From: a virus
Length of the DNA: 34,903 bases
Virus record (IMG/VR): IMGVR_UViG_3300033402_000340
Reading direction: 5' to 3' (one strand)
The stretch's first letter is position 1. Every line of letters starts with the position of its first letter. The notes beneath the pieces were generated by a model that was not told the DNA's origin, did no database searches, and saw nothing but the letters and a program-made list of their open reading frames with translations. A program made the translations under genes and the position numbers. Below, one piece after another: positions 32,797 through 33,132 of the stretch.

Positions 32797-33132
32797 CGGA
32801 GTAGATGAGACGATCGCTGGCCGAAAGGCGAGAGGAAAGTCCGGGCTCCACAGGGCAGGGTGCTGGTTAACGACCAGGCGGAGTGATCCGACAGAAAGTG
32901 GAACAGAAAGAAAACCGCCACGGTTTCGACCGTGGTAAGGGTGCAAAGGCAGGAGTAAGACCCTGCCCAGTTTGCAGTGATGTAAACTGCGCTAAACCTC
33001 ACCTGGAGCAAGGCCAACAGAGAGCGGTTTGCCCGACCGATGCTCTCGGGTGTGCTGCTTGAGCTCGTCAGCAATGCCGAGCCTAGATGAATGATCGTCC
33101 TCGACAGAACCCGGCTTACACATCTACTCCAC
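32797..33132 (+). ncRNA. rnpB: RNase P RNA, bacterial type A (M1 RNA homolog)
   Basis: Near-identity to the conserved E. coli M1 blocks: GAGGAAAGTCCGGGCTCCACAGGGCAGGGTGC, ACAGAAAG, GGTAAGGGTGCAAAGG, AAACCTCACCTGGAGCAAGGCCAACAGAG, and GCTGCTTGAGC...GCCTAGATGAATGATCGTCCTCGACAGAACCCGGCTTA. P1 pairs GGAGTAGATG with CATCTACTCC. Confidence 0.9.

Follow-up and report, generated by a model that had tools for sequence, protein, structure and literature searches.

The stretch of viral DNA analysed here (IMG/VR record IMGVR_UViG_3300033402_000340; 34,903 nucleotides (nt), hereafter the window) contains, inside a tRNA island, a complete gene of 337 nt for a structurally intact bacterial type-A RNase P RNA, located at 32798..33134 on the plus strand. 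The gene probably provides the catalytic RNase P subunit as an accessory cassette of a huge-phage tRNA island, excised from a polycistronic transcript and working with the RnpA protein of the host. The identity of the element was determined by an Rfam cmscan of the whole window, which returned RF00010 (RNaseP_bact_a) at 32798-33134 (+) with 287.6 bits (E 3e-93). This value is nearly three times the gathering score of the family (100 bits), and the match is far beyond chance. The alignment spanned positions 1-367 of the 367 model positions with no truncation, and a scan restricted to the region agreed. The original prediction, which had been made from the letters of the window and placed a type-A RNase P RNA at 32797-33132, was thus borne out by the covariance model, with ends differing by at most 2 nt.

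Structural analysis showed that helices P1 to P18, including P13/P14 and P18, all aligned to the type-A model. In a model-anchored alignment checked against the sequence, 91 of the 102 model base pairs were canonical, six fell at deleted positions, which correspond to a shortened P3, P12 and P16/17, and 125 of 141 strongly conserved consensus positions were matched. The six M1 RNA blocks that had been quoted as conserved and collinear were all found, in order, as GAGGAAAGTCCGGGCTCC at 32832-32849, ACAGAAAG, GGTAAGGGTGCAAAGG, CTGGAGCAAGGCCAACAGAG, CCTAGATGAATGA, and ACAGAACCCGGCTTA at 33104-33118, and the P1 pairing, also said to be kept, is a perfect helix of 10 bp (GGAGUAGAUG / CAUCUACUCC). 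The tertiary pairings P4 and P6 are absent from the Rfam annotation and were read from sequence complementarity. The core block GAGGAAAGUCCGGGCUCC (32832..32849, +) holds the 5' strand of P4 at 32837-32844, and the core block ACAGAACCCGGCUUA (33104..33118, +) holds its 3' strand at 33111-33117; in this pseudoknot AAGUCCGG is complementary to CCGGCUU, with the usual bulged U. A putative P6 pseudoknot is formed on the same strand by GGGC (32853..32856) and GCCC (33031-33034) in the P17 loop, an assignment that we take from the established type-A architecture. The L15 loop carries a GGU motif (33049..33051, +) aligned to CGGGUa of the model, which is presumably the motif that pairs with the 3'-CCA of tRNA in Escherichia coli M1 RNA.

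The genomic position of the gene was compared with that in related huge contigs, in which copies were located with an nhmmer profile built from Rfam-confirmed copies and then with Rfam. The window is collinear with the IMG/VR contigs L041 (436 kb) and L036 (252 kb) across the tRNA island, and the islands of these two contigs hold 39-43 tRNAs per 21 kb. L036 carries a full-length RNase P RNA (263 bits) directly after the same tRNA-Trp-like element that precedes the gene in the window, and in a further contig, L011 (363 kb), an RNase P RNA of 299.5 bits begins 1 nt after a normal tRNA-Trp. The order in L036 and L011 is tRNA-Asp, tRNA-Asp, tRNA-Trp, RNase P RNA and, further on, tRNA-Ala, while the window shows Asp, EF-Tu, Asp, Trp-like, RNase P, Ala; in all three the slot of the RNase P RNA is the one between tRNA-Trp and tRNA-Ala. 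No RNase P RNA is present at the homologous site of L041, the closest relative, whose EF-Tu is 88% identical. Homology between L041 and the window covers the Trp-like gene and all of the spacer, to CACCACCAAT, after which L041 continues with tRNA-Ala and the window with the RNase P RNA. Because this closest relative is without it, the gene is regarded as accessory and not essential, and, in these comparisons, its behaviour is that of a cassette which fills a single array slot and is gained or lost between close relatives.

The covariation analysis that the original prediction had called for revealed that changed base pairs are mostly compensated between the window and both L036 and L011. Between the window and L036, 53 pairs were identical, eight had a one-sided change that kept the pairing, 29 were double-compensatory and six were lost; the corresponding numbers for L011 were 51, 5, 29 and 6. 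Thus 37 of the 43 changed pairs stayed canonical in the comparison with L036 (P about 7e-11, under a model in which a changed pair stays canonical at random with a probability of 0.375). The P4 helix itself is included: L036 has GUCGGGG with CCCCGCUU, while all other copies have GUCCGGG with CCCGGCUU, which is a compensated C-G to G-C flip, and the core block at 32832-32849 is invariant over nine viral copies save for this compensated C-to-G change in L036. Since the copies of the window, L036 and L011 share one slot, the simplest reading is that the RNA has diverged within phage genomes under structural constraint. A neighbour-joining tree of 62 RNase P RNAs gave bootstrap values of at most 31 of 100 for the groupings tested (window, L036 and L011, 10; L036 and L011, 31), and because of this weak support neither a count of acquisitions nor the name of a donor phylum was taken from it. 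A host call from a clade signature word was tried and not made, as the word occurred mainly in metagenome-assembled genomes of Chloroflexota/Dehalococcoidia and Treponema; the RNA of the window was ~64-67% identical to that of the bacteria with this word, no higher than to that of other bacteria.

The possibility raised with the original prediction, that the region is host chromosome or the flank of a prophage, was addressed through the flanking genes, which proved to be syntenic with IMG/VR contigs of 250-436 kb. Two contigs of 62.9 and 42.9 kb, from different ENA samples, were identical over the compared RNase P RNA region, and a contig of 76.7 kb from a third sample overlapped the left end of the window. 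The island encodes a diverged, full-length EF-Tu (30609..31886, +; Pfam GTP_EFTU with the D2 and D3 domains), the anchor for the synteny comparison with huge viral contigs. It was 60-88% identical to its homologues in IMG/VR contigs of 250-619 kb, and 79-88% in those of 252-436 kb, whereas it was only ~53% identical to cellular EF-Tu; it looks like a member of an old viral lineage and not like a recent capture from a host. A vault-like protein of 852 amino acids (18581-21139, -; Pfam MVP_shoulder 1e-29, Vault_3 8e-10) has relatives on 13 IMG/VR contigs of up to 436 kb (42-68% identical) and in the 'uncultured phage' genomes LR756501 (735 kb) and LR756500 (462 kb), where the identity was 42-43% over 93% of the length. 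On the contig of the closest relative, the neighbourhood of the shared vault-like gene includes a tail-fibre-like gene, whose match is to collagen-like repeats. A phrog_6452 protein of the window matched 106 phage records, those of Caulobacter and Brevundimonas jumbo phages among them; the other 13 of 14 tested open reading frames (ORFs) had no match in deposited phage records, and most of the remaining ORFs were without a Pfam or PHROG match. Taken together, the relatives and the phage-typical genes make it very likely that the window is huge-phage DNA. The viral identity rests on the relatives because the 34.9 kb of the window, which begins at a contig end, contain no capsid, portal, terminase or tail gene.

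RNase P RNA genes in a similar setting were found in other viral contigs, which makes the gene of the window one case of a feature that recurs in huge viral contigs. The exact core word GAGGAAAGTCCGGGCTCCA was present in 19 IMG/VR contigs and a degenerate version of it in 66. At least 20 contigs carry an RNase P RNA inside a dense tRNA array (L003, L009, L018, L005, L132, L140, L152, L155, L156, L161, L162, L144, L118, L157, L121, L120, L142, L164, L133, and L125), 16 of them being 60-463 kb long. In Rfam scans of subsets, 26 of 26 submitted copies scored above the family threshold; the copies of L012 and L005 run off the end of their loci and match only part of the RF00010 model. In many of these contigs the RNase P RNA is tightly packed between tRNAs, as in L132 (tRNA 727-800, RNase P 800-1149, tRNA 1151-1224), in L152 (tRNA ending at 7740, RNase P 7749-8036, tRNA from 8037), and in L003 and L009, with 6-nt spacers on both sides; overall, the spacers between RNase P RNA and tRNA were 0-8 nt in L132, L152, L155, L156, L003, L009, L018 and L011. 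As a control, none of 24 sampled cellular rnpB loci (from species genomes) had a tRNA within the 3-8 kb locus. Contigs of 372 and 497 kb that share an EF-Tu homologue have an RNase P RNA copy away from tRNAs, and small tRNA-free contigs with RNase P RNA look cellular.

Some of the viral copies were reduced in size. The RNAs of L003 (4030-4350), L009 (4462-4786) and L002 (122-421) are without P13/P14, with 43 model positions deleted, and those of L152 (7749-8036), L156 (9394-9683) and L120 (976-1255) are 280-290 nt long and scored 155-171 bits. The latter three, which are butt-joined to tRNAs, nevertheless match the model over its whole length. These reduced copies are candidates for natural minimal type-A ribozymes. 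In addition, an RtcB gene lies within ~10 kb of the array-embedded RNase P RNA in L132 (4-690, ~110 nt away) and in L144 (9-1034), a proximity which suggests that tRNA repair and tRNA maturation functions are linked, and genuine transfer-messenger RNA (tmRNA) genes are present in the islands of L036, L162 and L144.

A blastn search of deposited phages with two viral RNase P RNA variants was also made and was set aside as a source of examples, since it matched only cellular-looking records or records marked UNVERIFIED; at blastn sensitivity, no array-embedded RNase P RNA was found in deposited phage genomes. Several deposited 'phage' records with rnpB or tuf look bacterial, namely CAKLQF02/CAKLQH02 (Acinetobacter phage MD-2021a), AGRM01/AFYI01 (Salmonella), MT835553, MT835480, and several OR84-OR85 records. 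The signs of bacterial origin in such records were Salmonella whole-genome shotgun contigs, a scaffold of 72% G+C, and UNVERIFIED marks, and the GenBank 'phage' records matched by the EF-Tu of the window were evidently bacterial contigs as well. Care is therefore needed when a phage collection is used as proof of viral origin.

The tRNA island of the window (25731..34471, +; Rfam, ARAGORN) comprises ~21-24 tRNA or tRNA-like genes, and all RNA genes between 25.7 and 34.5 kb lie on the plus strand, with the EF-Tu gene, an ORF for an HNH endonuclease and the RNase P RNA embedded among them. The original prediction had spoken of about 25 tRNA genes, some aberrant; the island and an aberrant tRNA are indeed present, while the number is somewhat lower, with 18 tRNAs at the Rfam threshold over the whole window, 18 by ARAGORN, and 21 plus two sub-threshold tRNA-like matches in the region-restricted scan. 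Downstream of the RNase P RNA, a tRNA-Ala(CGC) gene (33144..33215, +; Rfam, ARAGORN) follows after 9 nt. Upstream, a spacer of 167 nt (32631..32797, +), conserved with L041 up to the point given above, separates it from the tRNA-Trp-like gene. On the plus strand of this spacer no promoter-like or terminator-like site was found in a scan of 30300-34903 in which counts were no higher than in shuffled sequence, and the same scan, which is weak, predicted no plus-strand terminator between 31969 and 34794. Because of these counts, the scan was dropped as evidence on a promoter of the gene's own, and sigma-70 promoter scans are uninformative for phage promoters. A CCA end is encoded in only one of the 18 tRNA genes of the well-scored set.

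The remark in the original prediction that no rnpA-like ORF is visible in the window also held, as no PF00825 member was found among the called genes and the tested ORFs. A profile of three RnpA sequences (E. coli, B. subtilis and T. maritima, each scoring 100-120 bits with PF00825), run against the six-frame translation of the window and 164 loci (2.0 Mb), gave nothing (best E 0.38), and a peptide-pattern scan for RnpA confirmed no relative across the viral collection; both searches are insensitive to a divergent RnpA, and the window is part of a phage genome. Because no phage rnpA is detectable, the host RnpA is proposed as the partner of the RNA. Bacterial RnpA proteins and RNase P RNAs are known to be interchangeable across species.

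In the mechanism that we propose, the RNase P RNA would be transcribed together with the neighbouring tRNAs. Co-transcription is suggested by the single strand of the array, by the lack of a predicted plus-strand terminator in the weak scan, and by the 0-9-nt spacers in relatives. The 5' end of the RNA would arise from a cut in the spacer or 3' of the upstream tRNA, and its 3' end from RNase P cleavage at the 5' end of tRNA-Ala, 9 nt further on, after which the RNA would assemble with host RnpA. The resulting holoenzyme could add to, or sustain, the removal of 5' leaders for a large load of phage tRNAs (~20 or more here) during a long infection; alternatively, it could be suited to the CCA-less and partly aberrant precursors of the phage. 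Excision, the use of host RnpA, catalysis and a benefit to the phage, and with them the dedicated 5'-leader processing named in the original prediction, are, like co-transcription, what we infer from the arrangement and from the intact core of the RNA. A more general form of this proposal, which we put forward tentatively as a possibility, is that several huge-phage lineages carry a 'tRNA-punctuated' RNase P cassette with self-aided excision, which would form a chimeric holoenzyme with host RnpA and belong to a kit for the take-over or repair of translation (tRNAs, EF-Tu, RtcB, tmRNA).

Several points weigh against these proposals. The closest relative does without the RNA, and the window has no capsid or terminase gene. 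The upstream spacer of 167 nt means that the gene is not butt-joined to the preceding tRNA-like gene, and it could be transcribed from a promoter of its own. The contact between the GGU of L15 and CCA would be idle on primary transcripts because so few of the tRNA genes encode CCA. In E. coli, the protein subunit and not the RNA may limit the holoenzyme, and extra RNA might not help. Repeated capture from hosts may also have contributed, in which case some of the covariation would be bacterial in origin.

Three other explanations were weighed against an active, phage-borne RNase P subunit. That the region is cellular DNA (host chromosome, a prophage flank, or a chimeric or mis-binned contig), with the rnpB of the bacterium itself, would agree with the universality of rnpB in bacteria, with the many small 'viral' contigs and GenBank 'phage' records in which RNase P RNA is found without tRNA arrays in a cellular-looking context, and with the lack of a capsid or terminase gene in the window. 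This explanation is nevertheless largely refuted, and we regard it as very improbable: at least two samples gave assemblies with this arrangement, IMG/VR contigs of 252-436 kb show synteny on either side of the gene, L036 and L011 have it in the matching slot, the adjoining EF-Tu is remote from cellular EF-Tu, and the surrounding ORFs are nearly all orphans, the rest including phage-typical genes and a protein shared by huge phages. Moreover, the copy of the window stands among ~20 tRNAs on one strand, whereas the sampled cellular rnpB loci were without flanking tRNAs.

The RNA could also be a passenger, a host gene captured recently and drifting to loss, or a non-catalytic mimic such as a decoy that titrates host RnpA and so depresses tRNA maturation in the host, in parallel to what was proposed for the inactive poxvirus RNA; the retention of every helix and of the catalytic core in the window makes this rather improbable. 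A decoy would need only the protein-binding region and neither the specificity domain nor the substrate-binding elements, and drift would not yield the compensated pairs, P4 included, that separate the syntenic copies; in two Rfam scan sets, 21 of 21 other viral copies matched the whole model above threshold. These observations have to be set against the difference in presence between close relatives, the patchy occurrence of the gene in huge phages whose EF-Tu is related (it lies within 10 kb of EF-Tu in L036 only), the strong reduction of some viral copies (loss of P13/P14; 280-290 nt with 155-171 bits), and the precedent of the camelpox RNase P-like decoy (PMC3001073). A third explanation accepts an active RNA and assigns it to specialisation or counter-defence, in that it would replace the host RNA after shut-off, escape an attack on tRNA maturation by the host or a competing phage, or be tuned to CCA-less, aberrant or closely packed precursors or to other substrates such as tmRNA. 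Its co-location with RtcB (near the RNA in L132 and L144), diverged EF-Tu and tmRNA (L036, L162, L144), the CCA-less tRNA genes with recurrent CTGA trailers, the aberrant tRNAs, and the lineage-wise remodelling of the specificity domain in other viral copies are in line with such a role. The RNA of the window, however, shows no change in the specificity domain that would predict an altered choice of substrate, nothing in the data points to host RNase P as a target during infection, and the gene is dispensable in the closest relative, whose tRNA set is very similar; specialisation is therefore considered unlikely, and a general supply of the catalytic subunit is preferred.

The molecule shares with the chromosomal rnpB of bacteria (M1 RNA) the family, helices P1-P18, the P4 and P6 pseudoknots, the GGU of L15 and the conserved core, and it is an ordinary member of RF00010 in which the viral carrier and the arrangement appear to be new. 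It differs from bacterial rnpB in lying on a huge-phage contig, in a one-strand tRNA array and 9 nt from the next tRNA, in its slightly reduced length (337 nt; P3 and P12 are short), and in being present or absent between relatives, whereas cellular rnpB is essential and universal. Organelle genomes (yeast mitochondrial RPM1, plastid and cyanelle rnpB) encode only the RNA subunit, the protein coming from elsewhere, and yeast RPM1, which is flanked by tRNA genes, matures from a transcript shared with them. Organelle RNase P RNAs, RPM1 best of all, are thus the nearest functional analogues of the arrangement proposed for the phage, in which an RNA-only system would likewise take its protein from another genome; they are, however, vertically inherited, essential and often highly degenerate, whereas the phage RNA is a complete type-A RNA and accessory. 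In phage T4, the tRNA cluster is co-transcribed, and phage tRNA precursors are classical substrates of RNase P; T4 relies wholly on host RNase P, whereas here the phage supplies the catalytic RNA. RNase P RNA is generally taken to be a cellular ribozyme that is universal, essential and encoded on the chromosome.

The RNase P-like RNA of camelpox, an orthopoxvirus, has been discussed as a possible decoy (PMC3001073); that RNA is of the eukaryote type, whereas the phage RNA is of the full bacterial type A with an intact catalytic core. The translation gene sets of huge phages comprise tRNAs, tmRNA, EF-Tu/G/Ts, aminoacyl-tRNA synthetases and ribosomal proteins (PMC7162821). The window and its relatives follow the same habit, with a big tRNA island, EF-Tu and, in relatives, tmRNA, and the window adds a tRNA-maturation ribozyme to the sets described; the finding is an incremental extension of the huge-phage translation repertoire, not a new kind of system. 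RNase P is unmentioned in the main text of PMC7162821, in a 2021 comparative study of jumbo phages and in a 2026 review, and the full-text literature, with subscription journals and supplementary tables mostly outside it, gave no description of a phage-encoded RNase P RNA, the camelpox RNA being the sole viral precedent found there. With a complete type-A copy in phage tRNA islands, recurring in ~20 or more large viral contigs, the viral toolkit would reach beyond substrates and factors to a catalyst of tRNA maturation. If the cassette interpretation is true, viruses would be an unrecognised reservoir and an evolutionary test bed of catalytic RNase P RNAs, and the reduced viral variants would offer natural minimal type-A ribozymes for structure-function work. 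The gene rnpB serves to mark cellular genomes as complete (for example in PMC8172020), and phage copies can therefore mislead estimates of completeness and contamination and the classification of virus versus host. The interest lies mainly with specialists of RNase P and of phages, and the claim is directly testable.

Upstream of the RNase P RNA, the tRNA-Trp(CCA)-like gene (32560..32630, +) was missed by both ARAGORN and Rfam and was recognised by its cloverleaf fold and covariation; it is aberrant and conserved, with copies in L036 (5515-5585), L038 (about 1221-1292) and L041 (12022-12092). The D stem has 4 bp and the D loop 3 nt, and the anticodon arm consists of a 5-bp stem and an invariant 9-nt loop, CCUCCAAAA, which can be read as a C31·A39 mismatch with a 7-nt loop CUCCAAA. 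Compensatory changes were found in four of four stems across the window, L036, L038 and L041. The loop contains CCUCC, which is anti-Shine-Dalgarno-like.

Also within the island, an HNH-endonuclease-like ORF (31940..32467, +; weak Pfam HNH match, E 4.5e-4) overlaps the start of a tRNA-Asp gene (32422). Homologues occur in the tRNA islands of L036 (two copies), L144, L162, L136 and L155, and the product may be a homing endonuclease or mobility factor that shuffles cassettes of the island. The trailers of the tRNA genes between 25881 and 34354 begin with CTGA in ~1/3 of cases and with CT in most, and CTGA may be a shared signal for 3' processing. An ARAGORN 'tmRNA*' call at 33123-33756 was rejected, as it covers three tRNAs and no tmRNA of Rfam reaches the threshold there; near the end of the window, at 34718-34734, Rfam matches 17 nt to the 3' end of tmRNA. 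The Cys, Val and Leu calls of the ARAGORN intron mode, with 'introns' of 50-176 nt, were treated as unreliable. Odd tRNA-like matches were located at 34358-34471, 25731-25817, 26069-26135, 27364-27500 and 27887-28018; they include a 114-nt Rfam tRNA of 36 bits, a tRNA-Sec-like match of 34 bits (sub-threshold), a tRNA of 26 bits, and intron-mode Cys and Val calls with inserts of 50-56 nt, and may be spurious, or else tRNAs that are interrupted or degenerate.

Outside the island, Pfam searches identified an RtcB RNA ligase (14088-15326, +) and an ATP-dependent DNA ligase (2831-4072, +), and further products of the window are a nucleoside hydrolase-like protein, a 5'-nucleotidase and an endonuclease VII. 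The DNA ligase gene lies in a patch with a G+C content of 0.61, compared to ~0.47 in its flanks, which suggests a separate horizontal origin.

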